In this document: one piece after another, positions 4,626 through 38,599 of the stretch | Numbering within the stretch: the first letter of the stretch is position 1 | How the letters are laid out: the number at the start of each line of letters is the position of its first letter | Assembly: GCA_964421635.1 (NCBI GenBank) | Contig: CAYQWZ010000003.1 | Span: 65,712 to 129,711, forward strand | From: an uncultured Candidatus Saccharibacteria bacterium | GTDB taxonomy: Bacteria; Patescibacteriota; UBA1384; CAILIB01; JAUSJZ01 | Direction: 5' to 3' | DNA length: 64,000 nt | Notes under the pieces: model-generated | The model's input: only the letters and a program-made list of their open reading frames with translations | Told to the model about the DNA's origin: nothing | The model's database searches: none | Made by a program: the position numbers and the translations under genes

Positions 4626-4721
4626 GTTGTACTTTGACTTATTTTGAGATAATAGTAAGTTGTTTGGCGTACAGTAAGTAAGCATTATTTTTTTGTGAAG
4701 AATATTTCTGACGAACAATGC

Positions 4722-5255
4722 ATGAAGAAATTGGCAGAGGGAGATCAAAAAGCCCTATCTTTTTTGGTAGATAGATATGAGAATAAGCTCAGACATTTTA
4801 TTCACTCTTTGGGCAAAATTTCCGCCGACGATATCGAAGATATTTTACAGGAAACTTTTATTCGGGTTTATCAGAATGCCAAAGGATTCGATGCATCCTA
4901 CAGCTTTTCATCATGGGTTTACAGAATTGCCAGAAATCAGACCTATAGTTTTATGCGTAAAATGAAAGTGCGACCACATGTAGTTTTAGAAATTAGTGAT
5001 GTGCCAAGCAAGTTGCTGATTGATGAGGTTGATCTCCATCAAGATGTTATAACAAAAGAGAAGAAAGCCAAACTACAAAACTCAATAAATAGTTTACCAA
5101 CCAAATATGCGGAGGTATTGCAATTATTAGTTTATGAAGAGATGAGTCAGAAAGAAACATCAGATATTTTGAAAATACCTGTCAGTACAGTAGCCACTAG
5201 ATATGCTCGAGCCAAACAGCAATTAAAAATTGTTCTAAAAAATGAAAAAGACTAA
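4722..5255 (+). CDS. ECF-type RNA polymerase sigma-70 family factor. The ORF opens at a GTG at 4695; ATG 4722 is more likely.
   Basis: Region 2 (DIEDILQETFIRVYQN...FSSWVYRIARN) and region 4 HTH (EVLQLLVYEEMSQKETSDILKIPVSTVATRYARAKQQL). Confidence 0.8.
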   Translation: MKKLAEGDQKALSFLVDRYENKLRHFIHSLGKISADDIEDILQETFIRVYQNAKGFDASYSFSSWVYRIARNQTYSFMRKMKVRPHVVLEISDVPSKLLIDEVDLHQDVITKEKKAKLQNSINSLPTKYAEVLQLLVYEEMSQKETSDILKIPVSTVATRYARAKQQLKIVLKNEKD

Positions 5256-5763
5256 AGAAGAAATCTTAAAAATATTGAAGGACAAACAGATTGAGCAGAA
5301 GCCTCGATGGCACTTTCAATTACAAAAAATACTAATTTGGACAGCTGTCATTGGAGGATTAATAATTTCAGGCTTGCTGTCTTCAGTGTTAATTCAATTT
5401 AGTTTAGCAGCTGGCGTCAAAGAAGTAATTGGTCCGAATTTTCCTGCTATAATAATGGCTTTCCGCCTTGTTCCTTCATTATTTATTCTTATTATTATGG
5501 TGGCAGTTTTAATCAATAGTATTTTAAATAAACTCACTCCAAAGGGTTATCGTGTGACTTACTTAAAATCCTTATTTATTACTTTAGCTGTTGTCGGTTT
5601 ATTAGGGTCACTGTTCTTTGGTTTGGGTGTGGGACCAAGAATGCATCAACAATTTTTACATATTAAACCGTACAAGGCTGAATTTGACCGGCGTCATAGA
5701 TTGCCGAAAGAGGAAATTAAAGGTGTGAGATATTATCCTCCGGCTGCGCGTACTAATAGGTGA
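5242..5763 (+). CDS. Membrane protein directly downstream of and overlapping the ECF sigma gene. Possible anti-sigma factor.
   Basis: Overlapping start, multiple TM helices, no recognisable catalytic motifs. Assignment rests on position only. Confidence 0.35.
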   Translation: MKKTKEEILKILKDKQIEQKPRWHFQLQKILIWTAVIGGLIISGLLSSVLIQFSLAAGVKEVIGPNFPAIIMAFRLVPSLFILIIMVAVLINSILNKLTPKGYRVTYLKSLFITLAVVGLLGSLFFGLGVGPRMHQQFLHIKPYKAEFDRRHRLPKEEIKGVRYYPPAARTNR

Positions 5764-5795
5764 GGACGTCTTCAGAAAAATAAGTAAGAATAAAT

Positions 5796-6248
5796 ATGAA
5801 CAAGAATTACATTCCCTATTTGGTTGCTACTGCCGCTATAGTAACGGCAGGTGTAACAACAATTAGTGCGCAAGAAGTTGGTGAAACCGATCAGCCGGTT
5901 GACGAAGCTGTTAGTCAAGAAGATACATCCGTAAACTGTCGTGGTAAACGCCATGAAAACAAGGAGAATTTCGAAGCGGTAAAAACTGCTATCGAGAATA
6001 ATGACTACGAAGCTTGGAAGAGCGCTATTAGTGAGGCTCCCTTTGCTGATAAAATTTCCGAAGTAATTAATGCAGAGAACTTTGATAAATTTGTGGAGAT
6101 GCATAATTTACGACAAGACGGAGATATCGAAGGGGCACAAGAGATAAGAGATGAATTAGGATTACCAGCAAGACCTGGAAAGGGTGGCGCCGGTCCACGC
6201 GGAGAACATGGTTTTCATAAGGGAAATGTTGAGTCAGAAGCTCAATAA
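5796..6248 (+). CDS. Secreted hypothetical protein with a signal peptide.
   Basis: N-terminal hydrophobic signal (YLVATAAIVTAGVTTISAQE), followed by an acidic low-complexity sequence and a terminator downstream. Confidence 0.45.
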   Translation: MNKNYIPYLVATAAIVTAGVTTISAQEVGETDQPVDEAVSQEDTSVNCRGKRHENKENFEAVKTAIENNDYEAWKSAISEAPFADKISEVINAENFDKFVEMHNLRQDGDIEGAQEIRDELGLPARPGKGGAGPRGEHGFHKGNVESEAQ

Positions 6249-6279
6249 AATCTAATTTGCTATTAAACAGAAAGACTCT

Positions 6280-6306
6280 AGACCCTAGACTCTAGGGTCT
6301 TTTTGG
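6280..6306 (+). terminator. Rho-independent terminator. A 9 bp perfect stem AGACCCTAG/CTAGGGTCT is followed by a T-run.
   Basis: agaccctag-act-ctagggtct-tttt, directly read from the sequence. Confidence 0.7.
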
Positions 6307-6405
6307 TTGTGCAATGTCGAAAAAGCACTACTAGCTTGACTATCAAGCTTATTTTTGTTAGTGTTTTAGCAGTTCGTTAGGGGGGAAACCCCGGAAAGGT
6401 TGCAC

Positions 6406-7185
6406 ATGAACACGCGAAATCTCATCTCAACTCTGCTTGCTGTCTTCATCGTTCTGTCGGCTTTGATGCCGGCACTGGCCGATGATGAGGGCGCGCAGGC
6501 CTACGCTCCCACCACCCTCAGTGCCTACGCCGGTTACAACAGCGACTACATCTGGTCGTTGGGAGGTCACTCGTCTGAGGGTTCCTCGCGTGCTGGCGCT
6601 GCTATTACCGCGCCGCTCAACCGGCAGGGCAGTGTCTGGCTTCAAGCTCGCTTCGACGCCATGTATGGCGATGGGCCGTTCGGCAAGGAGAACGATGTTA
6701 CCTTGGCTTTTTGGGGTAATCTGCCCAAGGGTCAGGTCGTCGGTGGCGCTGTACTGTGGTACGATCTGGCGCCGACAGGCAGCAGCCGTGTCGGCGACAT
6801 GGTCGAGGTGGCACTTTTCTACAAGTGCCCATTCGAAAGCTCTGTTGGCACGCTGGTGGCTGAAGTGGGCACCCGCGTCTTCTATGTAGTCGATTTCCCG
6901 GTGTCAGGCACTGATGGAGTCGTCCCTTACGTGGGCGTTTCCGGTGCTTGGCCCGTCTCGAGCCGACTGACGGGTAGCTGGAATCAGCTTGTCGGCTACG
7001 ACTCGGGCGTCTATCTGGCTGACCGCGGCCTGATGGCGCTGGGCGACGGCAAGATGACCTATCAGCTGAGCGACAGCGACCAACTGTATCTCAACTGTCG
7101 GTTCTGGGCTCCGCTCTCGGGCATCGACGACCGGGTCAGCAAGGCTGAGATCGGAATAGGCTACGAGCATGCCTTCACCTTCTGA
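6406..7185 (+). CDS. Secreted beta-barrel outer-membrane-protein-like protein in a GC-rich island (about 60% GC). The ORF opens at a TTG at 6400; ATG 6406 is likely.
   Basis: Signal peptide (LISTLLAVFIVLSALMPALA), alternating hydrophobic beta-strand pattern, and the C-terminal OMP signature ...GIGYEHAFTF ending in Phe. Composition departs sharply from the flanks. Confidence 0.5.
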   Translation: MNTRNLISTLLAVFIVLSALMPALADDEGAQAYAPTTLSAYAGYNSDYIWSLGGHSSEGSSRAGAAITAPLNRQGSVWLQARFDAMYGDGPFGKENDVTLAFWGNLPKGQVVGGAVLWYDLAPTGSSRVGDMVEVALFYKCPFESSVGTLVAEVGTRVFYVVDFPVSGTDGVVPYVGVSGAWPVSSRLTGSWNQLVGYDSGVYLADRGLMALGDGKMTYQLSDSDQLYLNCRFWAPLSGIDDRVSKAEIGIGYEHAFTF

Positions 7186-7231
7186 CCAGACAACCTAACT
7201 GGCCGAGTTCTCGGTCAACGCCAGCATCTCA

Positions 7232-7259
7232 CCTCCGGGCCGTCCCGGAGGTTTTTTTT
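7232..7259 (+). terminator. Rho-independent terminator (CCTCCGGG-ccgt-CCCGGAGG then T8).
   Basis: An 8 bp GC stem plus a U-run immediately after the OMP-like gene. It overlaps the dnaE stop on the opposite strand. Confidence 0.75.
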
Positions 7260-10200
7260 AATACACATTTTCGATGCCTACAATTTCGGCTACCTGATTC
7301 TTTAGTTTTTCGTTAATTTCTACCGTAGATTTAGTGGCAATCTCTTTAATGCCGCCATTATGAGGTAGGCGCAAAGCTACCGGTTTATCACCAGGATAGA
7401 GTGCTAAAATTTGTTTCAGCTGCATTAGCGTATCTTTATTGGCCGAATTGGGCACTTCAATAATAAAACGATTCGCTTGACCAAAATTGCCGTTATTATT
7501 GTCGCCGGAGCCATTACTGTTCCAACCGTTCTTCGGTCTTTCCCGACGTTTTTGCGGTCTAAATTTCGGTAGGTTTGGCAATTCATTCCCTTCAACCTCA
7601 TAAATTTGTTCTACCAAAATTTTCATTTCTTTTGTTTGAACCTGTGTTCTAGAATCTTTGGCATTAACAAATCCGTCGACAACCAAAATTTTGCCCACTT
7701 CAAGCTTATTTTTATGTTCGGCGTGGACTTTTGGGAAAGCAATTAGTTCTAGAGAAGTCGCGGCATCTTCGAACTTAATAAAACTCATTGGGTCATCATT
7801 TTTGGTCATAATGGTACGGATATCTGAAATTAATCCTACTACTCGCACTTTCTGGTTGTGCAGCTTGGCGTTAATTTCGCTCAAAGGCTGTACTTCGGCG
7901 CCCAATTTTTTAGCCACTTCTTTTATAGGATGGTCAGAAAGATAAATTCCCAGAAGCTCGCGCTCCCAGTCGAGTTTGGTACGGTTATCAATAGCAGGGA
8001 CATCTGGCAAATCTAGTTTAAATTGCGCTCCTTCTTCTTCGTCTCCGAATAATCCTTCTTGACCAACAGAACTATTTTTATGCACCGCAGAAATGAAATC
8101 TAAAATTGCTGGCATTCCTTCGAGCACACGGTTGCGATCTTCGAGCGAATCAAGCGCTCCTGCTTTAGCCAAATTCTCAACCACTTTTTTATTAACTTTT
8201 TGACTGCCCAGTCGAATAAGAAAATCGGTTAAACTTTTGTATTTACCATTCTTTTCGCGCTCCTTCACAATTTCGGCGCTGACATCGACGCCGACATTCT
8301 TAATAGCGCCAAGACCGAAACGAATCACATTACCTGTTCTTTTTGGCGAAGGCTCGGGTGTGTCGTAAACAACAGCGAAATCAACGAAGGATTCATTAAC
8401 ATCTGGCGCCAGTACCTTAAGTCCCATTTGGTCGGCCTCTGCTAGCTCTATAGCTAGCCGGTCGAGATTGTGTAAGTCAGAGGTCATCAGGGCGGCCATA
8501 AACTCCGCCGGATAATTTGCCTTCAAATACGCTGTTTGGTAGGCAATCATGGCGTAACAGGCGGCGTGAGCGCGGTTGAACCCATAGCGAGCGAAAGGTT
8601 CGATAAAGTTCCAAATCTTTTCGGCTAAGGCTTGAGAAATGTTTTGCGTTTTAATTGATCCATTAATAAATTTCTCTCGTTGTTCATCTAGTAAGGATTT
8701 AATTTTTTTGCCCACTGCTTTACGCAAAATATCTGCTTCGCCGTAAGTGAAGCCGGCGAAATCGCGAGCAATTTGTAGTACCTGATCTTGCGTAACAATA
8801 ACACCGTAAGTGTCTTTCAAAATTGGCTCCAATGCGGGGTGAAGATAAGTTATAATTTTCCGGCCATGCTTTGATTCAATAAAATCGGGAATGGCTTCCA
8901 TTGGGCCAGGGCGGTATAAAGCCACCATTGAGATAATATCTTCAAATTCGGTCGGCTTTAGTTCTCTCAAATAGCGTTTCATGCCAGCTGATTCTAGCTG
9001 AAACACTCCAGTCGATTCAGCTCGCGACAGTAGTTGGTAAGATTTTTTATCATCTGTTTTTAGAGTGCGAATATCTATTTCGACATGGCGATGTTGACGC
9101 AACAGCTTCAAACATAAATCGATAGTGTTTAAGTTAGATAATCCTAAAAAGTCAATTTTCAAAATGCCCATATCTTCAATGGCGTGCATCTCATATTGAG
9201 TAGTTATGGATTGATCGGAGCGGGCGGCGTACTGGAGAGGAACATAGTTGTACAACGGCCCGGGAGTTACCACGACGCCGGCCGCGTGAATTGAAGTGTG
9301 GCGAACGGATCCTTCTACTTTTTTAGCTAAGTCAAGCAGTTTTTTCACCTGAGAATTAGAATTATAGTTATTCGTTAACTCTTCAGAGTGCTCCATAGCT
9401 TCAGAAATGTTGTCGCCGAAAGGAATTAGCTTGGCGATATAGTCACATTCTTGGTAGGGCAGACCTAACGCGCGACCAACATCGCGCACAGCGTTTCTGG
9501 CCTGCATAGTACCAAAGGTAATAATCTGCGCGACGTGGTCGCTGCCGTAACGGTCGCGGACATAGTCAATGACTTCGTCGCGGCGTGAATCTTGAATGTC
9601 GTTATCGATATCAGGCATTGAGAAGCGCTCAGGGTTTAAGAAGCGTTCAAAAATAAGTTTGTACACCAATGGGTCAATGTCTGTAATACCCGTGACATAA
9701 CCAACCATTGAGCCGGCGGCGGAGCCACGGCCGGGGCCAATCAAAATTCCTTGCTTACGCGCCCAGTTAATAAAGTCTTGAGTGATCAAGAAATATCCTT
9801 CAAAGCCCATATTCTCAACCACAGACAATTCGTAATCAACGCGATCGGCTACCCGTTTTTCGAGCGGAATTGATTCGTCGTTACTGTCAGGAGAAGGCAG
9901 AATTCCGTCAGTTGGCAGGTCGCCAACCTTGTAGTTAAAACCAAAGCGTTCTCTTACTCCTTCTTCGCAGAGCTGGCGTAAATAATCGTGCTCACTTATA
10001 CCTTCAGGCGTCGGATAGTTTGGTAAAATATTTTCGCCGAATTTGATTTCAACATTACAGCGTTCAGCAATTAGCTGGGTATTAGTTAAAGCTTCGGGCG
10101 CATCGGCGAACCATTCGGCCATATCTTTTGGGTCTGTAATTGACAAATCGGTATCTAAAAAGTTTAGCCGGTTGGGCTCGTCAACTTTTTTACCTGACGA

Positions 10201-10869
10201 AATACAGGTCAAAACATCTTGCGCCTCCGCATCTTCTGGGTGCACATAATGAGAGTCGTTGGTGGCAATTAATCCTAACTTTAATTCTCGCGCCAACTCT
10301 ATTAAAATTTTATTGAGTTTAGCCTGCTCCTCTAAATTAGGATGATGCTGCAATTCCAAAAAGAAATTATCAGGGCCAAAGATATCTACATACTCTAAAA
10401 TTACTTTCCGAGCCTCACTCAAAGAGCGCATAGCGGCTCGGGCAACTTCACCTTGCAAACAGGCTGAAGCAGCAATTAATCCTTTAGAATATTTTTTTAG
10501 AGTTTTTTTGTCGACCCGAGGTTTGTAGTAGTATCCGTCTAAATGAGCAATGGTAACAAGGCATAACAGATTCTGATATCCTTCGTTATTTTCAGCTAGA
10601 AGGATTAAATGATAAGGCTTAGTGTCGACGCGCGGAGTCTTGTCATTCAAAGAGCGGGGAGCGATATAAGTTTCAACTCCCAAGATTGGTTTTATTCCCT
10701 TTTCCTTCGCTTTCTGGTAAAACTCAATAGTACCGTACATTGCTCCATGATCGGTTAGGGCAACAGAGTTCATACCAAGCTCGGCTACTCTATCAAGTAA
10801 AGCGTCAATTTTACTTGCGCCGTCGAGTAGAGAATAATGGGAGTGTACGTGTAAATGAGTAAAACGCAT
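7258..10869 (-). CDS. dnaE: DNA polymerase III alpha subunit.
   Basis: 1203 aa. Has an N-terminal PHP domain (HLHVHSHYSLLDGA), polymerase core motifs, and OB-fold tail. Confidence 0.95.
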   Translation of the reverse strand: MRFTHLHVHSHYSLLDGASKIDALLDRVAELGMNSVALTDHGAMYGTIEFYQKAKEKGIKPILGVETYIAPRSLNDKTPRVDTKPYHLILLAENNEGYQNLLCLVTIAHLDGYYYKPRVDKKTLKKYSKGLIAASACLQGEVARAAMRSLSEARKVILEYVDIFGPDNFFLELQHHPNLEEQAKLNKILIELARELKLGLIATNDSHYVHPEDAEAQDVLTCISSGKKVDEPNRLNFLDTDLSITDPKDMAEWFADAPEALTNTQLIAERCNVEIKFGENILPNYPTPEGISEHDYLRQLCEEGVRERFGFNYKVGDLPTDGILPSPDSNDESIPLEKRVADRVDYELSVVENMGFEGYFLITQDFINWARKQGILIGPGRGSAAGSMVGYVTGITDIDPLVYKLIFERFLNPERFSMPDIDNDIQDSRRDEVIDYVRDRYGSDHVAQIITFGTMQARNAVRDVGRALGLPYQECDYIAKLIPFGDNISEAMEHSEELTNNYNSNSQVKKLLDLAKKVEGSVRHTSIHAAGVVVTPGPLYNYVPLQYAARSDQSITTQYEMHAIEDMGILKIDFLGLSNLNTIDLCLKLLRQHRHVEIDIRTLKTDDKKSYQLLSRAESTGVFQLESAGMKRYLRELKPTEFEDIISMVALYRPGPMEAIPDFIESKHGRKIITYLHPALEPILKDTYGVIVTQDQVLQIARDFAGFTYGEADILRKAVGKKIKSLLDEQREKFINGSIKTQNISQALAEKIWNFIEPFARYGFNRAHAACYAMIAYQTAYLKANYPAEFMAALMTSDLHNLDRLAIELAEADQMGLKVLAPDVNESFVDFAVVYDTPEPSPKRTGNVIRFGLGAIKNVGVDVSAEIVKEREKNGKYKSLTDFLIRLGSQKVNKKVVENLAKAGALDSLEDRNRVLEGMPAILDFISAVHKNSSVGQEGLFGDEEEGAQFKLDLPDVPAIDNRTKLDWERELLGIYLSDHPIKEVAKKLGAEVQPLSEINAKLHNQKVRVVGLISDIRTIMTKNDDPMSFIKFEDAATSLELIAFPKVHAEHKNKLEVGKILVVDGFVNAKDSRTQVQTKEMKILVEQIYEVEGNELPNLPKFRPQKRRERPKNGWNSNGSGDNNNGNFGQANRFIIEVPNSANKDTLMQLKQILALYPGDKPVALRLPHNGGIKEIATKSTVEINEKLKNQVAEIVGIENVY

Positions 10870-10873
10870 TCAA

Positions 10874-12151
10874 ATGATAATTGGTTACCAACTTGGCCGA
10901 ATAAAAGAACTTTCGGAGCTAGAAATAAAGAGCGTTGTCGCTCGCGATGTAGCTCCCTCCTTGGCACTTTCTATAGTAACGCAGGCGCCATTAACTTTCC
11001 ATACTGATAAATGGTCTACAAGCTGGGGACAACTACCCTCCGAGCGCATAGCTAGCACATGCTCTGAGGCTTTGTCAAATCAAATTCTTACTCTGGGAGG
11101 GACTATCAGAATTTACGAATTGCTAGCTAATGGCCGAGAAATTGAAAAGTTTTTAATTGAATCAAATACGCTAAAAAATATTGCTAAAAAAATATATTCC
11201 AAGTTAGCTCGCACGCCTAATAAAATGAATATCGGATTATCTGTTTTGAATGGAAATATTAAATTTGCCCAGCTGCGCACAATTATGCAGACCATAAAAA
11301 AGGAAGCAAAAAGTGAAGGGCAATCAATTCGTATCGTCATGCCCAAAGATCGACACTGTGAGTTGAATGCAGCCTCAGTGGTTAGCAATAAGCTGCTCAC
11401 TAAGGGTTATGAAATTGTTTTTATACCGACTGGAAAAAATAATTATTACTATATAGGATTAACCATAGCCATTCATAATCCTGATAGAGATGCGTGGTTG
11501 GATTTTGAAATTCCTCGGCCCGATGCTAGAAGCGGAATGTTACCGCCCAAGCTAGCGCGTATGATGGTTAATATCGCCGTTGATGGAGAAAAAGATGTAA
11601 CAGTTTTTGATCCTTTTTGTGGCAATGGCCGAGTGTTGCTCGAAGCGCTGCTTTTGAGATATCAGACATTTGGTCGTGATATAGATAGAGAAAAAGTTGA
11701 TTCTACCAAACAAAATATAGGTTGGCTAAGAGACAATGTGTCTACTAAGTCTTGGTTTTTGGGCGGGCCCCTACCAGACGCGCAGGTTTTTCAAGGGGAT
11801 GCTCGCGAGCGAGCTAAAATTAATGTGCCAAAACCCAATGTAATGGTGACAGAACCATGGCTGGGCCCGCCCCTTAGAGATTATCCTGAGCCAAATGTTG
11901 GGCGAAAAATTGCCTCCCAAGTTGAAGATCTGCTAATAGCCTCTATTCCTAATTTAGTAGCGGTGCAATCGAAAAGAATTGTGATGATTGTTCCGAGGTG
12001 GAAGCTAGCTGGCAAAGAAGAGCTATCAATAGCTCAAATTATACTTGACGAATTTATTAAAACGGGTTACGATGGCTCTTGTATTGCGAATGTAGGTCGC
12101 GATGATTCTTTTTTGACTCGAGAAATCCTACTCATGAATAGAAACAATTAA
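10874..12151 (+). CDS. Putative SAM-dependent RNA methyltransferase (UPF0020/Trm11/RlmL-like). The start is uncertain.
   Basis: Motif I VFDPFCGNGRVLLEA and a downstream EPWLGPP (DPPY-like) motif. The N-terminal 230 aa are uncharacterised. The start codon lies 4 nt from the divergent dnaE start. Confidence 0.45.
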   Translation: MIIGYQLGRIKELSELEIKSVVARDVAPSLALSIVTQAPLTFHTDKWSTSWGQLPSERIASTCSEALSNQILTLGGTIRIYELLANGREIEKFLIESNTLKNIAKKIYSKLARTPNKMNIGLSVLNGNIKFAQLRTIMQTIKKEAKSEGQSIRIVMPKDRHCELNAASVVSNKLLTKGYEIVFIPTGKNNYYYIGLTIAIHNPDRDAWLDFEIPRPDARSGMLPPKLARMMVNIAVDGEKDVTVFDPFCGNGRVLLEALLLRYQTFGRDIDREKVDSTKQNIGWLRDNVSTKSWFLGGPLPDAQVFQGDARERAKINVPKPNVMVTEPWLGPPLRDYPEPNVGRKIASQVEDLLIASIPNLVAVQSKRIVMIVPRWKLAGKEELSIAQIILDEFIKTGYDGSCIANVGRDDSFLTREILLMNRNN

Positions 12152-14988: not shown

Positions 14989-15684
14989 ATGGATGCAATA
15001 TTGAGCTTGTTAGATGTAAACCAAACGCTATTTACCGTCTTCGATTACCCTATGAGCTATATTGAGTTCTTCGGTACTATGTTGAATCTAATAGCAGTTT
15101 GGCTAGTAGCAAAAAATAATATTTGGACCTGGCCAATAGGTAACATTGCGGTTGTGCTGTTCGGAATTTTATTCTTCCAAATTCAGCTATATTCAGACTT
15201 CTTCGAACAAATTTATTACCTAATTACCGGTTTTTACGGGTGGGCAGTATGGCTAGCTTTGAGAAGAAACAAGAAAGATAAAACGAAAAATGACGAAGAC
15301 GATGTCATTACCTACAACACGCAAACGAATAATATGCGCTACTTAGGAGTAATTGCCATTGGCACACTAGTAATGGGTTACCTAATTAGCAATATCCACA
15401 TATATTTGCCTCAGTATTTCGTTGAACCGGCAAGCTATGCTTACTTAGATGCCTTCACTACCGTTATGAGTTTCGTGGCTAATATATTGCTAGTACATAA
15501 GAAAATTAACGCTTGGTATCTCTGGATTTTTGTTGATATCATCGGCATCTGGCTGTACTTCGTCAAAGGTGTGGTCTTCGTATCCTTGCTATATCTTGTC
15601 TTCTTATTCATGGCTACCAAAGGATTGCTCAACTGGAGAAAGATTTATCTTAAAAACAAGGCTGCTAAATTACAAACATCATGA
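14989..15684 (+). CDS. pnuC: Nicotinamide riboside transporter PnuC.
   Basis: Seven TM helices, a PnuC-like WTWPIGN motif, and translational coupling (ATGA overlap) to the downstream NMN adenylyltransferase / ribosylnicotinamide kinase gene. Confidence 0.8.
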   Translation: MDAILSLLDVNQTLFTVFDYPMSYIEFFGTMLNLIAVWLVAKNNIWTWPIGNIAVVLFGILFFQIQLYSDFFEQIYYLITGFYGWAVWLALRRNKKDKTKNDEDDVITYNTQTNNMRYLGVIAIGTLVMGYLISNIHIYLPQYFVEPASYAYLDAFTTVMSFVANILLVHKKINAWYLWIFVDIIGIWLYFVKGVVFVSLLYLVFLFMATKGLLNWRKIYLKNKAAKLQTS

Positions 15685-16652
15685 CAACAGGATTAGTAGT
15701 GGGAAAATTTTATCCTTTTCATAAGGGACACAAATATCTTATCGAAACTGCCAAGAGTCAGGTTGATAAAGTAACGGTATTGGTTTGCCATAAGGAGGGG
15801 CAGGTTATTCCGGGAGCTGAGCGAGCTAGATGGATTAGAAGAGATGTTGGTGGGGTTAAGGTAATGGTGATTCCTGATGTATTGCCAGACGAGCCATTAC
15901 CTTGGGCTAAATATACGCTAAAAGTTTTGGGCTTCATTCCTGACTTTGTATTTACCTCGGAGGATTACGGAGAGGAATATGCCAGATTGATGGGCAGTCA
16001 GCATATCTTAGTAGATAAAAAGCGTGCTAAAATTCCGGTGTCGGGAACGAAGGTTAGAAAAGATCCTTATGCAAACTGGCAGTATTTAACGCCGTCTGCT
16101 CGGGCTTACTTTGCCAAAAAGATATGCGTCGTAGGGGCTGAATCAACTGGTACGACTACCATGGCACAAGCTCTAGCAAAATATTACAAGACAGTTTGGG
16201 TGCCCGAATACGGTCGGTTTTATTATGAAGGTAGAATGCATCTGGCTAACTCAAAGTGGAAGACTGATGATTTTGAACACATAGCCAAACAGCAGAATCA
16301 ATTCGAAGATAAACTGGCTTCTATTAGCAACAAGATAGTTGTCTGTGATACCGACTCATTTGCCACCAATTTATGGCATGAACGATATATAGGGAAGGTG
16401 TCAAAAAGAGTAGCCAGATTTAGCAAAAACAGACACTACGACTTATATTTAGTCACTGACGACTCTATTCCCTTTGTGCAAGACGGGACGCGTGACGGAG
16501 AAAAGATTAGGCATCAAATGCACGAGCGTTTTATTGAGGAGTTAAAAAAAGCCGGTAAGGATTATATTATTCTAAAAGGCAACCATAAAGAGAGACTAAA
16601 TAAAGCTATCAGTGCATGCAATGAAAAGATGTTAGAGTCCGTTTTTGCTTAA
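15681..16652 (+). CDS. nadR: NadR-type bifunctional NMN adenylyltransferase / ribosylnicotinamide kinase (no HTH domain).
   Basis: HxGH nucleotidyltransferase motif (GKFYPFHKGH) plus a P-loop (VVGAESTGTTT) kinase domain. Confidence 0.8.
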   Translation: MTTGLVVGKFYPFHKGHKYLIETAKSQVDKVTVLVCHKEGQVIPGAERARWIRRDVGGVKVMVIPDVLPDEPLPWAKYTLKVLGFIPDFVFTSEDYGEEYARLMGSQHILVDKKRAKIPVSGTKVRKDPYANWQYLTPSARAYFAKKICVVGAESTGTTTMAQALAKYYKTVWVPEYGRFYYEGRMHLANSKWKTDDFEHIAKQQNQFEDKLASISNKIVVCDTDSFATNLWHERYIGKVSKRVARFSKNRHYDLYLVTDDSIPFVQDGTRDGEKIRHQMHERFIEELKKAGKDYIILKGNHKERLNKAISACNEKMLESVFA

Positions 16653-17341
16653 GCGAAATATACGAGTTTGCGGTTTTTAAAATGGTATAGTTCGGCGGGT
16701 CTGTGAGATCCGTCGAGCTGTTTTTTGCCTGTTTTAACAAATAAATTTAGAGAATGCATTTTCTTTCTAAAATTTCGTTTGTCTAATTTTTTGCCCAAAA
16801 CTATCTCATAAGTGGCTTGCAGCTGGCTCATAGTGAAATCTTTCGCTAGTAATCCTTTTACAATATTACTGTAATAGAGCTTGCTTCTTAGTCTTTGAAG
16901 TGCATACTGAATAATTTCTTGATGATCGAATGCTAGGTCGGGTAATTTTTTAATACTGTGCCAAGCGGCGGCTGAAGCGTCTGTAGTAGGATTTAATTTG
17001 CTATTGGTGTTAGGCATCAAAGCAAAGTAGGCGACTGTGATGACTCTAGTTCGTGGGTCTCTATCTATTTTGCTAAAGGTGTATAGCTGTTCTGAAAAAG
17101 ATAGGGAAAGGCCAGTTTCTTCTTTTAACTCTCTAGCGGCGGTTTGCTCTAAAGTTTCTTTTGGCTTAACAAATCCTCCTGGCAGAGCCCAATGATTTTT
17201 GTAGGGCCAAATATTTCTTTTAATTAAAAGTGTTTTCAGATCATTATTCTCAATGCTAAACAAGACAATGTCGACTGTTAGTGAAGGGCGGTCGAACACC
17301 GAAGCGTCATAATTATTCTTGTTCAGAGATTGTTTTTTCAT
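16649..17341 (-). CDS. nrtR: Nudix-related transcriptional regulator (NrtR-like). It has a Nudix domain plus a C-terminal winged-helix-like domain.
   Basis: Nudix box GGFVKPKETLEQTAARELKEETG. The roughly 90 aa C-terminal domain (LAFDHQEIIQYALQRLRSK...) and its position next to pnuC-nadR with shared palindromic operators support the call. Confidence 0.6.
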   Translation of the reverse strand: MKKQSLNKNNYDASVFDRPSLTVDIVLFSIENNDLKTLLIKRNIWPYKNHWALPGGFVKPKETLEQTAARELKEETGLSLSFSEQLYTFSKIDRDPRTRVITVAYFALMPNTNSKLNPTTDASAAAWHSIKKLPDLAFDHQEIIQYALQRLRSKLYYSNIVKGLLAKDFTMSQLQATYEIVLGKKLDKRNFRKKMHSLNLFVKTGKKQLDGSHRPAELYHFKNRKLVYFA

Positions 17342-31712: not shown

Positions 31713-33284
31713 TCAAGATGAGGTGGCTTTGGTAATTTTTCTTTTCAATTTTGGGGGTTGGGCGGCGGCGGGCAGAGTTATAACGAAAGATGTTCCAATA
31801 GAATTGTTTTTAGCTTCTATACCGCCGCCGTGCTGTTCAATAATCCATTTTACTAGGGGGAGTCCTAGTCCAGCGCTACCGGCAATGTTTTTAGTTTTTT
31901 TGTCCTGAAAATAAGTGTCGAAGATTTTTTTGTTTGCCGATTTGCTGATTCCGCATCCTTCATCAGCAATAGTGATTTTTACTTGATTCTCAATTTTTTT
32001 AGCCTCAATCGATATTTTAGAATTTTCAGGTGAAAATTTTTGAGCGTTGTCCACCAAATTAATCAAAGCCTCAAAAAAATAGTTGGTATCAATCTCGGTA
32101 TAACAGTTATCTTCTAGTGAAAAAACAATTTTGTGTGATGGAGCAAGAGATTTAATTTCGCCTGACCATGAACGAATCAGTTTTTTAATATTGGTATTTC
32201 GAGGCTGAATTTTAGCTAATTTTGAGTCAATTTTAGTATTTTGCACAATATTATGTACGGTTCTATAGGTAGCGTTGATTATGTTTTCAATATCCTGAAT
32301 ATCCTTTTTTATTAACTTGTTTTTATTTTTTGCAGTTCTGATTTTTGTTTGGGCAATTATTAGAGGGCCTTTAAGACGGTGCGCGACGTCGGATATGAAA
32401 TTCATGTTAGCTTTATGAACTTTTTCTAATTCTAGGTGCTCGAGCTCTTTTCTATTGATCTTGTTGACAATGTCCCAGCTGGCGAAAACAACTAATAGAA
32501 AAAGAAGGATTTTATATGTCAGAAGATTGCTTGGGGCGGCAATAGCAGCTGCTGTAGTAATCGTTAGCAGGGTTGTATAGAAGACAATTTCTTTCGCTAC
32601 AATACGGATGTCGAAGAGTTGGTGTTTATATATTGCAAAAGACAGAACAAGTACAAAAAAGAAGCCTGAGAGAAAAGGAAATGGATAAATACTAATATTA
32701 TATGCAGGCAGAAAAGCTAATGGGCCAATAGTGAATAATATAATAAAAGCTAGATATACAAGTTTGGTTTGGTTGGCAATATTTTTGTTTTTTTGTTTAC
32801 TTTTTTTATAGTGCAAATGTAAATTTCTAAGCATTCCAAGTGTATGAATAGTGAACCATAATAAGAAAATATGATGCCATATTTGAGCTTGTGTATGAAC
32901 ACCCCAAGGATAATAGAATAAGTCTTTTACAAAGTAGTCTGTTCGACTCATTATTAGGAATGTGAATGCTCCAAAATATGAGAAAGGAAGTAATTTACTT
33001 TGATTGTTGAGCTTTGTATAGGCAATACTGAAATGATAAACAAGTGTTGGTATGAAGACGACTCCGAGGTAAATAAATCTATCCCAAAAAATTTGTTGCG
33101 TAGAGAATTCAGATATAAACAACATAAAAGTGCCAAACAGCCATATAACAATTGAGATACTAAAAAAGATAAATATAGAATTTAAATCGTTCTTTCTATT
33201 CTTTTTATAAACAGCTAAAGAGAAAAGCAAAACAAGAATTGCGCTAATTAGTGGAAAGAAATCAGAGGTGTTAAATATTGGCAT
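31713..33284 (-). CDS. Membrane sensor histidine kinase (multi-TM N-terminal sensor).
   Basis: H-box FISDVAHRLKGPL and HATPase_c motifs (LVDNAQKFS...DEGCGI...GSAGLGLPLVK). Confidence 0.8.
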   Translation of the reverse strand: MPIFNTSDFFPLISAILVLLFSLAVYKKNRKNDLNSIFIFFSISIVIWLFGTFMLFISEFSTQQIFWDRFIYLGVVFIPTLVYHFSIAYTKLNNQSKLLPFSYFGAFTFLIMSRTDYFVKDLFYYPWGVHTQAQIWHHIFLLWFTIHTLGMLRNLHLHYKKSKQKNKNIANQTKLVYLAFIILFTIGPLAFLPAYNISIYPFPFLSGFFFVLVLSFAIYKHQLFDIRIVAKEIVFYTTLLTITTAAAIAAPSNLLTYKILLFLLVVFASWDIVNKINRKELEHLELEKVHKANMNFISDVAHRLKGPLIIAQTKIRTAKNKNKLIKKDIQDIENIINATYRTVHNIVQNTKIDSKLAKIQPRNTNIKKLIRSWSGEIKSLAPSHKIVFSLEDNCYTEIDTNYFFEALINLVDNAQKFSPENSKISIEAKKIENQVKITIADEGCGISKSANKKIFDTYFQDKKTKNIAGSAGLGLPLVKWIIEQHGGGIEAKNNSIGTSFVITLPAAAQPPKLKRKITKATSS

Positions 33285-33285
33285 T

Positions 33286-34839
33286 CTAATTATCTGCTAC
33301 TTGTTTGTTAATTAACCTGTTTTTTTTGTGGAGTGGTTTTTCTAAACATGGAAGGACAAGAGAGAAGGTTGTTCCACAATTTTTATTATTGTGTTTAATA
33401 GTACTTTCTACCAATATTTTACCGCCGTGCTGCTCGACGACCCATTTGACAAGGGGTAATCCTAATCCGGCGCTACCAGCAACTGTGGTTTTGTTTTTTC
33501 CTTGATAATGTCGTCGGAAAACTTTTTTCAATTCAGATTTATCTATTCCTGATCCTTCATCGGCAATTGATAGGTAAAGAAGATTAGAATCCTTTTTTAA
33601 TTGAATGGTGATTTTGCTTTTTGGTGGTGAGAATTTTCGAGCGTTATCTATAATGTTGGTTAATGCTTCCAATAGGTAGCCGCGATCTATTGAAGCATGA
33701 CAATTTGGTTCGGTTTGGAAAATTATTTTGTGATCTGGAGCCAAGGATTCTAAGTAAGTGAGTTGATGTTTTAGAAAGTCTGACAAATTGGTTGGCTGTT
33801 TGCGGATTGTTGCCATACCAAAATCAATTTTGCTGTTTTGGACAATGTTCTTTACGGTGTTGGTGGTCGCTAGTGATATTTCAGCGATTCCTTTTAATTC
33901 AGGTTGATAATTCTTTTTATTTTTTATTGCTTTGTTTGCTTTAGTGTTGATAATTACCAAAGGGCCTTTTAAGCGATGAGCGACATCTGAAATAAATTCC
34001 ATGTTAGCCTTGTATTCTCGTTGGAGATTTTTATACTGTGAGATATCTTTTCGGTTTTGTTTAGTTATATCTGTGAGGGCGACAATTGCAATAAAGGTTA
34101 CGAAAAGTTTTGTAAACATGGGAGTTGTGTTAGATAGAATAGTGAATGAAAATAAATGAAAAAAGAGCAATAGGGCAAAAAACTTGATAAGGGAATGATT
34201 GAGCTTGCTATCCTTTGTTTTAAAGGAACTAAAATAAATGAAAATGCTGAATATTAATGATGAGATTGGGCCAATGAAGACTAAATTTTCTTGGCCGACC
34301 AGAGGTAGGTAAAGGTCAGTTGTGCTGGCAATTAATGCAAAAGTGATAAAACCGATAAAAATAAATCGGTTACTAATTTTATTTTTACTATTATCTTTTA
34401 TAACAAATATTATTTGGGCGAGAATAGATACTGCGATGAAGACTGCGTATATATAGGTGAAATTATTAGTATCTGAAATTATTATTCCATTGATAATCTC
34501 TGAGTTAGGGAATATTCCAGGATTAACAGTTACGACAGCTAACAAAAGAGCAATAATACCAATAAGTATTAATATTTTATGATTAATTTTTGCTTTGGTT
34601 GATTGATAAAAAAATAAGAAAGAGGTTAGAGCAATAAATAATCCTGCAGTACCAATTAGTTTTTGGAAAACGTCAATTTCTGTTAAGTAGTACAAGAAAT
34701 ATGTGAAGTTGTACAAGCATAATGATAGCAGTATATATAAATAGTAAAGACGGATTTTATCTTTAATAGAAATTGAGAACGCAAAAGATAAGTGAATTAT
34801 AGCTGTAGAAAGAAGTATTAATTGAACATCACTCATCAA
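33286..34839 (-). CDS. Membrane sensor histidine kinase, tandem paralog of 31713..33284.
   Basis: H-box FISDVAHRLKGPLVI and N/G boxes (IIDNARKFS...DEGSGI...GSAGLGLPLVK). Confidence 0.8.
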   Translation of the reverse strand: MMSDVQLILLSTAIIHLSFAFSISIKDKIRLYYLYILLSLCLYNFTYFLYYLTEIDVFQKLIGTAGLFIALTSFLFFYQSTKAKINHKILILIGIIALLLAVVTVNPGIFPNSEIINGIIISDTNNFTYIYAVFIAVSILAQIIFVIKDNSKNKISNRFIFIGFITFALIASTTDLYLPLVGQENLVFIGPISSLIFSIFIYFSSFKTKDSKLNHSLIKFFALLLFFHLFSFTILSNTTPMFTKLFVTFIAIVALTDITKQNRKDISQYKNLQREYKANMEFISDVAHRLKGPLVIINTKANKAIKNKKNYQPELKGIAEISLATTNTVKNIVQNSKIDFGMATIRKQPTNLSDFLKHQLTYLESLAPDHKIIFQTEPNCHASIDRGYLLEALTNIIDNARKFSPPKSKITIQLKKDSNLLYLSIADEGSGIDKSELKKVFRRHYQGKNKTTVAGSAGLGLPLVKWVVEQHGGKILVESTIKHNNKNCGTTFSLVLPCLEKPLHKKNRLINKQVADN

Positions 34840-34873
34840 TATGAGTGTTAGCAGAAAGTAGATGAAGAATCAA

Positions 34874-35977
34874 TTAACTTTTAGATTTTTTTAGTTGGTT
34901 TGCAACAACCTTGAAGGGTTCGTCGAAAGACTTAATATTGGCGGTATCATCTTGCTTATCAATTTTTGGTTTGATATACGCATACAACTGTGGTTTTTCT
35001 GATTTAAAATATGCTAAATTTTTCTTAATTAATGGCAAATTTGAAGGTGGTAGGCTATTGTTTATTAGTTGCGCCTTAGCTTTTATTAGTTGGAGAGTTA
35101 TATCTGGTGGACCAAGGTTTCCTGTTGCGATAAGAAAATTATTGGTTTGTAGTCTCCTCATCTTTTTTAAAATTGTATTCTTGAGGTGTTTATCAAGATT
35201 TGTTTCAGAAATTATAGCTTGATCAATTAGCTTTGTAATATTATTAGGTTCGGTCAAATGATTAATTTTGCCTTTCTTGTGTATACACCTGATAATTTTA
35301 TTACATAGACGATCTACAGATGTAAAACCCATAAAGCTTGTGAGAAGAGCCACTTCATTATAAGTGTAATTACCACTTTCTCCACCATCAAGAGTAATTA
35401 TTTGTATATCAGAGGATCGTTTTTGTATTATTACAGGTGAAAATATACATAATCCTGGTTTGATTTCAATTACTTTCAACTTGTCACGCAAACCCCTTTG
35501 GAGTAGTAAATTCATTGAAGTAATAATGCCAGCTATGGCAGCTTTATTGATAATTGGTAAATTAGCTTGTTTTTCACCATGTGTAAATGGAATATTAAAC
35601 CCCAAACCACCTGAGCCCGTTGTTCCAATTTGAACATAAGTACATTTTTTCTCTAAAGATGTGAATATTTCAAAAAGATTAGCAAAAAAAGTTATAATTT
35701 TATTTACATCTGCTATTCCATTTTTTGAGCAGATAGTGGCCATGTTAACAGAATTAATTATCAGATCTGGTTTGGTTGATTGAATAATGAATGTTAATTT
35801 TTTATTATCAAAAATGTCATAAAACAAATATTTAACATTGTGCAATTTTCTTTTTACTGAAATGTCTATTACAATAAGGTCGTAGTTATCGACTAGTTTG
35901 GCTGTAAGATTCCTTCCGACAAGGCCATTACCTCCAAACACAAGAGCGGTTTTTTTATGGGTTATATTTTTCAACAT
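34874..35977 (-). CDS. NAD(P)-binding Rossmann-fold protein, function unknown (saccharopine-dehydrogenase/epimerase-like).
   Basis: N-terminal TALVFGGNGLVGRNL (GxxGxxG). The remainder has no clear motif. Confidence 0.4.
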   Translation of the reverse strand: MLKNITHKKTALVFGGNGLVGRNLTAKLVDNYDLIVIDISVKRKLHNVKYLFYDIFDNKKLTFIIQSTKPDLIINSVNMATICSKNGIADVNKIITFFANLFEIFTSLEKKCTYVQIGTTGSGGLGFNIPFTHGEKQANLPIINKAAIAGIITSMNLLLQRGLRDKLKVIEIKPGLCIFSPVIIQKRSSDIQIITLDGGESGNYTYNEVALLTSFMGFTSVDRLCNKIIRCIHKKGKINHLTEPNNITKLIDQAIISETNLDKHLKNTILKKMRRLQTNNFLIATGNLGPPDITLQLIKAKAQLINNSLPPSNLPLIKKNLAYFKSEKPQLYAYIKPKIDKQDDTANIKSFDEPFKVVANQLKKSKS

Positions 35978-35978
35978 T

Positions 35979-37511
35979 ATGTCAACCTACTTTCCATTAA
36001 TACCATATTATTCAAGGAGAGCATATCAAATATTAAAGCAGTCAAAGAATTCTTTTTTTTCCGCGTTAACATATTTTAATGTTGATTTTGCATATAATTA
36101 CATAACAAAATCAACACCAAATGTCATTATTAGAGATGGTGTAATTTCAGAAAGAAAGCTTGGCGAATATATTTGTTTAAAAGTGCCTGCATATAAACGT
36201 TTGTTAAAAGAAAATAGGGTAGATAAACCTGTGATTGATAAAGAAAATTATCTATTAGAAAATGATTTTACTGATATGTTACCAAATGGTGATATTGGTT
36301 ATGCTGATGTGATATCGGTTAGTTCTGGCTCTAGTGGTAAACCATTTTTTTGGCCACGTGGCAAATATCTTGAATTAGAAACGACTATTATCCATGAAAT
36401 ATTATTGAAATATGTGTTTGATATTGATAAAAAACACACATTATTTATTAACGCATATTCTATGGGAATGTATGTTGCTGGTGTTTTTACCAACAATGCA
36501 GTAACAAGAATTGCTGAAAGAGGCTACAATATCAGCATTATTAATCCGGGAATTTCTGAAAAAGATATTATCAGAATAATAAAGGAAATAGGAAGAGCAT
36601 ATGACCAAATTATTATTAGTGGTTACCCGCCTTTTATTTTAGATGTTATAGAAGCTGGTAGAAATGAAGGAATCAAGTGGAAGGAAAAAGATTTGAAATT
36701 TATATTTGGTGCTGAAGCTATTAGTGAAGAATGGAGGAATAATTTATTAAAATTAATCGGAGACACAAATAAATATTTTTCTAGCTTTAATACATATGGT
36801 TCAGCTGATCTTGCTATGCTTGGTCACGAAACACCTTTTAGTATTTTCATTAAAGATCAACTAGTTAAAAACAAACATTTGTATAAAACAATACTAAATT
36901 CCCGTTCAATATCTACATTGGTACAATATCATCCATCATTAAAACACTTTAATGAAAAAAATGGTGAGTTATTTTGCTCAGGGCTCGGTGGAATACCACT
37001 ATATAATTACAATTTACATGATCATGGCTCAGTTTATACCATTGAAGATATGATTGGTCTTTTTGAATCTGTAGGTGTTAATATAATTAAATTAGCAGAA
37101 AAAGAAAATATACCAATTTGGAATCTTCCTTTCGTTGTTCTTTTTGGTAAGAGTGATCAGACAGTTACATTGTATGGTTTAAATGTTTATCCTCAAACAA
37201 TAAGGAAAGCACTTGAATCAAAAGAATTAATTGATTTTGTGACAGCAAGATCTACTATATCAACAGAATATAAGAAAAGAGGGACACAATATTTGAAAGT
37301 AATTGTTGAGTTGAAAAAAGGGGAAAGGGTATCAAATAGTAAAAGGAATAAAATATCTGAAAAAGTATTCCAAATATTATTTGAAGATAATTATGAATAT
37401 AGAACGCTTTATCAAAAAATAGGTGATAAGGCTAAACCAGTTATTAAGCTAGTGATGTATGGTAGGATTGCTGAAAATAGGGGAATAAAACAACAATGGA
37501 TAAAGAGATAA
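35979..37511 (+). CDS. Adenylate-forming enzyme of the ANL superfamily (PaaK/F390-synthetase/CapK-like acyl-CoA ligase). The ORF opens at 35898 but the first ATG is at 35979.
   Basis: Phosphate-binding loop VSSGSSGKPFFWPRG (the SSGTTGKP equivalent) and a YGSAD (YGxTE-like) motif. Confidence 0.55.
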   Translation: MSTYFPLIPYYSRRAYQILKQSKNSFFSALTYFNVDFAYNYITKSTPNVIIRDGVISERKLGEYICLKVPAYKRLLKENRVDKPVIDKENYLLENDFTDMLPNGDIGYADVISVSSGSSGKPFFWPRGKYLELETTIIHEILLKYVFDIDKKHTLFINAYSMGMYVAGVFTNNAVTRIAERGYNISIINPGISEKDIIRIIKEIGRAYDQIIISGYPPFILDVIEAGRNEGIKWKEKDLKFIFGAEAISEEWRNNLLKLIGDTNKYFSSFNTYGSADLAMLGHETPFSIFIKDQLVKNKHLYKTILNSRSISTLVQYHPSLKHFNEKNGELFCSGLGGIPLYNYNLHDHGSVYTIEDMIGLFESVGVNIIKLAEKENIPIWNLPFVVLFGKSDQTVTLYGLNVYPQTIRKALESKELIDFVTARSTISTEYKKRGTQYLKVIVELKKGERVSNSKRNKISEKVFQILFEDNYEYRTLYQKIGDKAKPVIKLVMYGRIAENRGIKQQWIKR

Positions 37512-38599
37512 AAATTTTTGATTGTACAGAAAAAGAGATTCAAAAATATAGTATAAAATATAAGGCACTTGGTTATGAATGGATTGATATAGTTGATGAG
37601 AATATTAGAGAGCTTGAAGAGATATATAAATATCAAGATGAAGCAATTATATTTAATCTGATAAAGAATAAAACCGTATTAGTCGATTATCCATGGTTGA
37701 GGAGTATAGTGAGGATTTGTCCAGAAGGGTATTTCCTCGAGTTACTTTCTTCAAGAAATAGGAATTTAATTAGCTCTAAAGAACAAAAGACACTTAGGAA
37801 GGCAAAGATCTCTGTTGCTGGTTTGAGTGTTGGAAGCAACATCTGTAAAATTATGGCAATGCAAGGTGTGGGAAGAGATTTTAATATTGCTGATTCAGAC
37901 ATCCTATCCTCAACTAATCTAAATAGAGTGAGCGAGAGTATTTTGAATGTTGGAAAGCCAAAGACACTATTAACCAAAAGAAGACTTTTAGAGATCAACC
38001 CTTTTTTAAATATAAATTTATTCAATAGAGGATTGACAATAAAGAATATCACGACATTCATCAGAGGAGCATCTGTTGTTTTTGATGAAATAGATAATTT
38101 AAATTTAAAACTTAAGTTAAGAGAGGCGGCAAAAAATGAGAGAAAACCACTTGTGATGATTACAGATAATGGTGATAACGTTATGGTGGATATTGAAAGG
38201 TATGATACAGACCCAAAACTGATACCTTTTCACGGCTTATTAAATAAGTTTGATCTTGATTTAATAAAAAAAGCAAAAAAGGGACTTAAACCAAGTGAAA
38301 GAGTTAAACTATCGTTGAAAATTGTGCAACCACAAAATGCAGTACCTAAAATGCAAAAATCACTTGTCGATGTTGGAAAAACATTAAACACATGGCCTCA
38401 ATTAGGGACTGCAGCGACACTTGCGGGTGCTGTTGGTTGTATGATTGCTAGAAAAATAATATTAAAAGAAGCACTTGTTTCTGGTAGGCGACACATCTCC
38501 TTAGACGCCGAACTTGAGCCAGGTCATAGAAAAGTAAGGTCAGTTCTGCGTAGACATATTCATACTATGAATTTCAAAAAGAGTTTAGGAAGAAAATGA
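37496..38599 (+). CDS. ThiF/MoeB/E1-like adenylyltransferase family protein with an N-terminal extension of about 100 aa.
   Basis: Rossmann motif ISVAGLSVGSNICKIMAMQGVGRDFNIADSDILSSTNLNRV (GxGxxG...D.D.V..SNLNRQ pattern). Confidence 0.6.
   Translation: MDKEIKIFDCTEKEIQKYSIKYKALGYEWIDIVDENIRELEEIYKYQDEAIIFNLIKNKTVLVDYPWLRSIVRICPEGYFLELLSSRNRNLISSKEQKTLRKAKISVAGLSVGSNICKIMAMQGVGRDFNIADSDILSSTNLNRVSESILNVGKPKTLLTKRRLLEINPFLNINLFNRGLTIKNITTFIRGASVVFDEIDNLNLKLKLREAAKNERKPLVMITDNGDNVMVDIERYDTDPKLIPFHGLLNKFDLDLIKKAKKGLKPSERVKLSLKIVQPQNAVPKMQKSLVDVGKTLNTWPQLGTAATLAGAVGCMIARKIILKEALVSGRRHISLDAELEPGHRKVRSVLRRHIHTMNFKKSLGRK

Follow-up and report, generated by a model that had tools for sequence, protein, structure and literature searches.

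Proteins of the TorF/Gcw_chp family (TIGR02001, PF09694) have, to our knowledge, no tested function, and our literature search returned no paper on Gcw_chp, PF09694, TIGR02001, or porins of the candidate phyla radiation (CPR). Solved structures of similar strand number and size include the 12-stranded channels Tsx (1tlw), NanC/KdgM (2wjq, 8xua), COG4313 (4rl8), and FapF (5o68); channels of this type are inserted into the lipopolysaccharide outer membrane by the beta-barrel assembly machinery (BAM). CPR bacteria (Patescibacteria) have been placed in a monoderm clade that lost its outer membrane and porins, and the envelopes of the few CPR organisms for which they have been described are monoderm. 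Barrels outside the classical diderms are not unprecedented, because a large survey of transmembrane barrels also predicted them in groups that include monoderms (Actinomycetia, Firmicutes). Here we describe a GC-rich island at positions 6378 to 7252 of a 64-kb stretch of contig CAYQWZ010000003.1 (hereafter the window), in which a single open reading frame (ORF; 6406-7185, plus strand) encodes a putative barrel of the outer membrane type in a genome that we assign to the CPR. We think it likely that this island is a single-gene cassette that was horizontally acquired by the CPR bacterium, and that it encodes a Sec-exported, divergent, 12-stranded barrel of the TorF type. Some of the CPR copies already bear the name "TorF family putative porin" in the annotation of the NCBI pipeline; as far as our literature search shows, the conservation of a TorF-like barrel family in the CPR has gone undiscussed, and the window copy sits in an unexpected host.

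The ORF encodes a protein of 259 aa when read from its ATG, or 261 aa when read from a TTG at 6400. The N terminus, MNTRN-LISTLLAVFIVLSALMPALA|DD, shows by inspection the basic N-region, hydrophobic core, and ALA|DD cut of a signal peptide (residues 1-25; positions 6406-6480, plus strand), with a predicted signal peptidase I site and without a lipobox cysteine. AlphaFold2 places a helix at residues 3-19, where the signal peptides of related proteins align. The mature region (residues 26-259 and the stop codon; 6481-7185, plus strand) is predicted to form a 12-stranded beta-barrel and ends in ...GYEHAFTF, an aromatic-x-aromatic arrangement (F-T-F) of the kind found in the beta-signal of outer membrane proteins. 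When given an alignment of 19 sequences (A3), AlphaFold2 returned 12 long strands with a predicted local distance difference test score (pLDDT) of 83.2 and a predicted template modeling score of 0.77, with pLDDT falling below 50 at residues 84-91. The top 50 Foldseek matches to this model in the PDB were all outer membrane barrels, the best being the COG4313 channel (4rl8), Tsx (1tlw), NanC (2wjq; template modeling [TM] scores of 0.56/0.69), FapF, and NalP. The two faces of the strands also differ markedly: the outward face has a mean hydropathy of +1.37 and 4 charged residues among 77, whereas the inward face has a mean of -0.97 and 18 among 78, a contrast that was reached by none of 2000 shuffles. 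The protein is thus predicted by modeling to be a membrane-type beta-barrel, closed and antiparallel, with a hydrophobic exterior and a charged lumen. An initial annotation of the window, made from the sequence alone, had proposed a barrel resembling an outer membrane protein on the basis of a signal peptide, beta-strand periodicity, and a C-terminal signature, and had named a soluble fold as the outcome that would speak against it; the structure prediction gave a barrel, and the Foldseek matches and strand-face contrast agree with the proposal.

Placing the protein in a family required sensitive searches. With the protein alone as query, a search of PDB sequences found no match and a word-indexed homolog search recovered only the protein itself. 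When 1.84 billion representative proteins were searched exhaustively with phmmer, four full-length relatives of 235-258 aa emerged, which are 22-33% identical to the query and have E-values of 1.9e-7 to 6.9e-4 (2.8e-4 for P0004). A profile of these sequences (A2) retrieved 16 proteins; PF09694 is present in several, and NCBI gives two the name "TorF family putative porin". At E ≤ 1, 15 of the 19 sequences in alignment A3 match TIGR02001 (best E 7e-9) and 13 match PF09694. The window protein is 16-27% identical to the aligned members of A3, in which G-x-E-x-D, G-D, and Y-D-x-G occur as invariant motifs; the positions that are invariant in both A2 and A3 are Y48, G54, G93, E95, D97, D131, G168, G171, Y198, D199, and G208. 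Profile comparison with hhalign aligned A2 to a subgroup of CPR proteins (A4) over the full length (E 2e-48), and the window protein by itself aligned to A4 in the same register (E 3e-4). Because it fails the family models, we class the window protein as a highly divergent relative of TorF/Gcw_chp proteins, not as a member of the family.

The resemblance to TorF/Gcw_chp proteins comprises a length of 235-260 aa, an N-terminal signal peptide, an all-beta fold, a full-length alignment that includes G-x-E-x-D, G-D, Y-D-x-G, and a D/E-R near the C terminus, and a C-terminal aromatic residue. The protein differs in scoring below both family models, even at E ≤ 10, and in its setting, which is a CPR genome without tor genes nearby rather than a diderm proteobacterium. 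With the solved 12-stranded channels it would share, as modeled, a closed antiparallel barrel (TM 0.5-0.69) and a polar, charged lumen; sequence identity to these channels is 8-13% and the root mean square deviation is 5-8 Å, and the likeness does not imply the same substrate.

Related barrels occur in many CPR genomes. GTDB species representatives were scanned with the CPR subgroup alignment A4 (P0006-P0018; the clade loci are L019-L027, for example EXS46_03765 in a metagenome-assembled genome [MAG] of Candidatus Taylorbacteria), with search patterns specific to this clade, and the result is uninformative on members outside the CPR. Each of the 13 loci recovered bears a title that names Paceibacterota, Taylorbacteria, Nomurabacteria, Parcubacteria, or "Saccharibacteria". 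On long contigs, the CPR barrel genes lie among the housekeeping genes Tig-ClpP-RNase Y-HU, MraZ-RsmH-PBP, or GrpE-DnaK. Two syntenic copies (L002 and L007) have a synonymous divergence (dS) of 1.33 and a ratio of nonsynonymous to synonymous divergence (dN/dS) of 0.09, from which we conclude that the family is maintained by purifying selection in the CPR. The window gene resembles this clade in superfamily, in its Patescibacteria host, in being a single gene amid housekeeping genes, and in being GC-richer than its surroundings. It differs in that the proteins are 16-19% identical to that of the window, and in that the clade copies are syntenic across genera, often beside a TrmB-type regulator, and look vertically inherited, whereas the copy in the window was inserted in a lineage-specific manner and shows a far larger GC shift.

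Some further features of these CPR loci are recorded here as side observations. A TrmB-family regulator (PF01978) lies beside or near the barrel gene in L002, L003, L007, and L008, and in L007 a 10-kb stretch contains three such genes. Small ORFs in which GC at third codon positions (GC3) is 0.57-0.78 occur in L005 (3442-3819, 9634-10044, 10510-11100, 14431-14691, and 14931-15461) and L007 (753-1040 and 7195-7860). They are mostly unannotated and scattered amid housekeeping genes with a GC3 of 0.28-0.52; the genomes are compositional mosaics beyond the barrel gene. Two loci from one MAG (L028 and L029; Paceibacterota AMR_MDS_4024) have nearly identical barrel genes of 245 aa on short contigs, with a GC content of 0.47 and 0.45 and flanks of 0.34-0.38; the pair represents either two gene copies or variants of different strains.

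Measured in 200-nt windows, GC content is 0.585-0.615 from 6400 to 7200 and 0.32-0.44 in the flanking DNA, and the richest 800-nt window of the 64 kb is found here (6454-7253; GC 0.611, z = 4.2). The sharply bounded GC-rich segment of the initial annotation is real: it spans 6378-7252 on the plus strand with a GC content of 0.60, is the strongest peak of the 64 kb, has sharp edges at about 6378 on the left and about 7252 on the right, and contains exactly one intact gene, together with a 5′ leader and a 3′ untranslated stretch with a terminator. Taking the 58 other ORFs of the window as a reference set, the barrel gene has a GC content of 0.599 and a GC3 of 0.704, compared with 0.397 and 0.354 for the set (GC3 standard deviation 0.063, maximum 0.494). 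The same protein recoded with the codon usage of the host would have a GC content of 0.477, so amino acid composition explains 8 of the 20 GC points and codon choice the remainder; amino acid composition is thereby ruled out as the sole cause. Favored codons include CTG, GGC, CCG, GTC, AAG (5 of 5), and TTC (10 of 11). G-ending codons are enriched besides C-ending ones, and the usage is poor in Lys and rich in Gly and Ala, which is typical for GC-rich genomes. Expression-linked codon bias was rejected as the cause because the GC3 of GroEL and L19 is 0.36 and 0.32, respectively, and because of the enrichment in G-ending codons. The GC-richness extends to the non-coding ends of the island, with 0.61 in the leader (6378-6405) and 0.64 in the 3′ stretch (7186-7252), compared with 0.36 in the native intergenic spacer (6249-6377). 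No paralog of the barrel protein was found elsewhere in the window.

Because the change in GC is so abrupt, and because five contigs from other assemblies terminate within the barrel gene, an assembly chimera or a contaminating GC-rich fragment joined onto a CPR contig had to be considered; the assembly records make this extremely unlikely. A 9-kb ENA contig (k141; L001) spans both junctions and matches the window at 100% identity. The five contigs that terminate within the gene come from different samples or assemblers (ENA ERZ27248897/936/885, JGI 3300028193, and Logan SRR8437246). Each spans the left junction and covers the first 130-280 bp of the barrel gene, with 100% identity to the window in four of them and 99.9% in one. 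The left junction is therefore shared (99.9-100%) by six assemblies, which represent at least three data sources, several samples, and different assemblers; both junctions are identical in two assemblies, and the full barrel gene is identical in both assemblies that contain all of it. In addition, the T-run of the downstream terminator overlaps the stop codon of dnaE. Scans of JGI metagenomes with DNA from the dnaE end and with the protein found no match, so the right junction rests on two assembly records. The junctions are real, and the misassembly or contamination that the initial annotation had raised as a possibility can be set aside. The five contigs stop at 6534, 6636, 6665, 6665, and 6679, a zone (6534-6679) that sits just 5′ of or within the codons for the low-confidence loop at residues 84-91; this suggests that the assembly graphs branch here, as would happen with allelic variation.

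Comparison with related loci shows that the site of the island is variable. The downstream neighbor is dnaE (DNA polymerase III alpha, 1203 aa; 7258-10869, minus strand), a native housekeeping gene that serves as the synteny anchor. In the window, the slot from bPH to the 3′ end of dnaE holds three genes of native GC (4695-6248), followed by the GC-rich barrel gene. The three form a lineage-specific block that consists of an ECF sigma factor (4695-5255), a membrane protein of 173 aa (5242-5763), and, immediately upstream of the island, a secreted-looking protein of 150 aa (5796-6248, plus strand; GC 0.43, GC3 0.31), the last of which is present on 6 contigs from several samples. Neither the block nor a barrel gene is found at this site in the closest relative (L016), in which DnaE is 85% identical, or in L018, in which it is 68% identical. 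L016 keeps the order M16-NDK-GT4-RR-RR-bPH-...-dnaE-methyltransferase-L27-L19 and has an unrelated gene of 197 aa (10668-11261) in the slot before dnaE, whereas in L018 bPH directly adjoins dnaE and the slot is empty (10612). Since the contents differ in all three, we regard the slot as variable and the barrel as a lineage-specific gain, and because two relatives are without the gene and the non-coding ends of the island are GC-rich as well, horizontal acquisition is indicated.

As to the origin of the cassette, all relatives with a named organism are CPR bacteria. The four closest relatives sit on short contigs. P0005 adjoins genes for a LytR-CpsA-Psr protein and peptidyl-tRNA hydrolase (Pth) in AT-rich DNA, a context that suggests a monoderm or CPR organism, and P0002, the closest of the four, lies on a 3.9-kb contig with a GC content of 52-57%; the surroundings of P0002 and P0003 point to no particular group. 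The donor would most likely be a higher-GC organism with a TorF-like barrel, possibly another CPR lineage. The actinobacterial, mycomembrane-bearing donor put forward in the initial annotation is not supported: the sole detectable relatives are of the TorF/Gcw_chp type, those with names are all from the CPR, no mycobacterial porin is among the top 50 Foldseek matches in the PDB, and there is no Pfam match. MspA-type porins of the mycomembrane are comparable in forming pores in a lineage that lacks the classical outer membrane of Gram-negative bacteria, but they match the window protein in neither sequence nor fold. MspA assembles into an oligomeric goblet rather than a monomeric barrel of 12 strands.

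The initial annotation had pointed to a second GC-shifted segment, and this too was found. It lies within a lipoprotein gene (50887-53013, minus strand; 708 aa, lipobox LLYGC) whose product has a lipase-like alpha/beta-hydrolase domain, a Ser-rich linker, and C-terminal LGFP repeats. The LGFP part (50887-51800) has a GC content of 0.565 and a GC3 of 0.595, compared with 0.427 and 0.384 for the hydrolase part, and 50910-51709 is the second GC peak of the window (z = 3.4). From its sequence, the gene looks like a mosaic at the level of domains, which would fit a second, independent acquisition.

A Shine-Dalgarno-like GGAAAGG (6393-6399, plus strand), identified by inspection, lies 6 nt 5′ of the ATG of the barrel gene. 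A GC-rich terminator hairpin (ACCTCCGGG/CCCGGAGGT; 7231-7252, plus strand) lies inside the GC-rich DNA and is followed by a T8 run that extends to 7260 and into the stop codon of the convergent dnaE. Upstream, a hairpin of 9 pairs followed by TTTTT (6280-6300, plus strand) and a second hairpin with a T-run (6333-6349, plus strand) are terminator-like; both are located in AT-rich DNA of native composition and belong with the gene that precedes the island. Thus, of the terminators that the initial annotation assigned to the island on both sides, the downstream one holds, whereas the upstream hairpins are native. The three terminator-like sites are no excess over the shuffled expectation of 2.1 +/- 1.4, and only the placement of these hairpins, not their number, carries meaning. 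A scan for promoters near the barrel gene found nothing that met the criteria of the scanner; by inspection, TTGACT in the second upstream hairpin, followed 17 nt on by TAGTGT, is a weak sigma-70-like candidate just 5′ of the island that falls under the scanner threshold. The sole repeat that flanks the island is a 15-nt direct repeat of 80% identity (6365-6379 and 7301-7315), which is probably due to chance.

Judged from the relatives of its DnaE and from its gene content, the host is a member of the Patescibacteria: all named DnaE relatives are from the Patescibacteria group, Parcubacteria, Andersenbacteria, or Spechtbacterales, and the housekeeping neighbors include an M16 peptidase, NDK, a MraY-like transferase, dnaE, L19, and GltX. 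Genes for PilB-PilC-PilM-PilN-PilO are present in the window without an adjacent secretin gene, and a scan of approximately 40 ORFs of the 64 kb detected no Bam, Lpt, or Omp85 domain. The initial description of the genome as monoderm-looking, made from the lack of these components, holds for the 64 kb inspected and agrees with the CPR assignment. The PilB-type ATPase (T2SSE and MshEN; 45755-47911, minus strand) has an N-terminal HU-like domain (PF00216; residues 4-91, E 2e-14), which is an unusual fusion.

Taken together, our favored interpretation involves the following steps. The cassette would have been inserted into the variable slot at the 3′ end of dnaE. Its product would be exported by the Sec pathway and cleaved after Ala25, giving a mature protein of about 234 residues that could insert into a lipid layer outside the cytoplasmic membrane. 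By analogy with Tsx and NanC, the barrel may form a narrow, water-filled channel for small solutes. Because the CPR are regarded as monoderm and without BAM machinery, two receiving membranes may be envisaged: an uncharacterized outer layer belonging to the CPR cell itself, or else the outer membrane of the partner on which it lives.

Several observations weigh against this interpretation. The protein alone has no match in Pfam or NCBIfam at E ≤ 10, so the family assignment is transitive, and its alignment to A4 reaches just 40% hhalign probability. The barrel structure is a prediction from a shallow alignment of 19 sequences, and the single-sequence AlphaFold2 model was poor (pLDDT 40). We know of no outer membrane or BAM machinery in the CPR. 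Regarding the transfer itself, no integrase or transposase was found in the flanks of the island or adjacent to it, searches of plasmid and phage collections gave no match to the barrel protein and identified no vector, and nothing above 29% identity that could serve as a donor was found in the 1.84 billion representatives. Finally, the barrel gene is GC-richer than its neighbors in 20 of 20 loci examined, and richer in GC3 in nearly all, with an extreme at L031 (0.48/0.51 for the barrel gene, against 0.27/0.17); long-resident syntenic copies with dS > 1 are still GC-elevated. Some of the GC excess may thus stem from a bias specific to the family instead of recent transfer, and a single recent transfer is not enough as an explanation; repeated exchange or gene-specific bias are both possible. 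Thus, the one-off acquisition from a high-GC source proposed in the initial annotation is supported by composition and by the two relatives without the gene, but is too simple for the family, because the barrels recur in the CPR and are GC-richer than their surroundings in every one of the 20 loci.

These last observations also speak for an alternative in which the window gene is native and long-resident and owes its high GC to codon selection, as in a very abundant surface protein, or to GC-biased gene conversion at a hot spot of recombination. The GC excess across loci, its persistence in the GC3 of L002 and L007 at dS 1.3 and dN/dS 0.09, and the breaking of five contigs within the gene, which variable or recombining alleles would produce, all fit this alternative. 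Nonetheless, we consider it improbable, given that the slot is without a barrel in relatives with 85% and 68% identical DnaE, that the leader and trailer are likewise GC-rich although non-coding, that the gene has G-ending codons and a Lys-poor, Gly/Ala-rich usage, that GC3 is low in GroEL and L19, and that no relative has a close homolog. A further alternative is that the island is recently acquired, functionless DNA, its ORF being unexpressed or its product not assembled in the host. Such DNA might well be carried by one population only, as seen here, and might lack a promoter that meets scanner criteria, and the literature credits the host with no known machinery for barrel assembly. The ORF is nevertheless intact, with a Shine-Dalgarno-like site, signal peptide, and terminator; its first 130-280 bp are 99.9-100% the same across samples, and the full gene is identical in two assemblies; and homologous barrels are under selection in other CPR bacteria. 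We regard a functionless insertion as unlikely.

Two other explanations concern the membrane rather than the gene. If this organism, or some part of the CPR, possessed an outer lipid membrane or an equivalent, the barrel would simply be a porin of its own envelope. A conserved TorF-like clade amid housekeeping genes in many CPR genomes, purifying selection on that clade, the classical signal peptide with a C-terminal aromatic signature, and the small number of organisms in which CPR envelopes have been described all speak for this; the placement of the CPR in a monoderm clade that lost its porins, the monoderm nature of those described, the pilus genes without a secretin, and the lack of Bam, Lpt, and Omp85 among the approximately 40 ORFs of the 64 kb speak against it, and on balance we give it little credence. 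A more speculative model, which we put forward only tentatively, is that TorF-like barrels are a conserved part of CPR biology: the cells, with one membrane and no BAM machinery, would export self-inserting barrels either into the outer membrane of the bacterium on which they live or into an unrecognized outer layer of their own, where they would serve as channels for metabolites that the reduced cells are unable to make, with the genes being repeatedly exchanged and the window copy being a fresh arrival. Repeated exchange would explain why the gene is GC-richer than its neighbors in every locus examined. Horizontal acquisition of a cassette that encodes an exported TorF-type barrel remains the interpretation that we prefer.

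Two additional regions of the window deserve mention. A cluster for NAD salvage (14989-17341) encodes a PnuC-type nicotinamide mononucleotide transporter, a NadR-like kinase/adenylyltransferase, and an NrtR-type Nudix regulator, and is consistent with a scavenging lifestyle. The region 32000-39000 is low in GC (about 0.30, compared with 0.40 overall) and encodes two histidine kinases, one of which has a 7TM sensor, an epimerase-like protein, a ThiF-family protein, and an ORF of 537 aa without a Pfam match; a third kinase, with a 7TM sensor domain, begins at its end.

If the island were merely a stray transfer, it would be a neat but unremarkable example of horizontal gene transfer. The wider family raises a larger question, because CPR bacteria take up nearly all of their building blocks from partner cells, and a conserved, selected family of outer-membrane-type barrels, of which the window would hold a freshly transferred copy, conflicts with the picture of the CPR as monoderms that descend from diderm ancestors and have lost the outer membrane and porins. 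If these barrels are what they appear to be, some CPR bacteria would either retain or have rebuilt an outer lipid layer, or they would deploy barrels in the membrane of another cell. Both possibilities bear on the evolution of the bacterial envelope and on the mechanism of episymbiosis.

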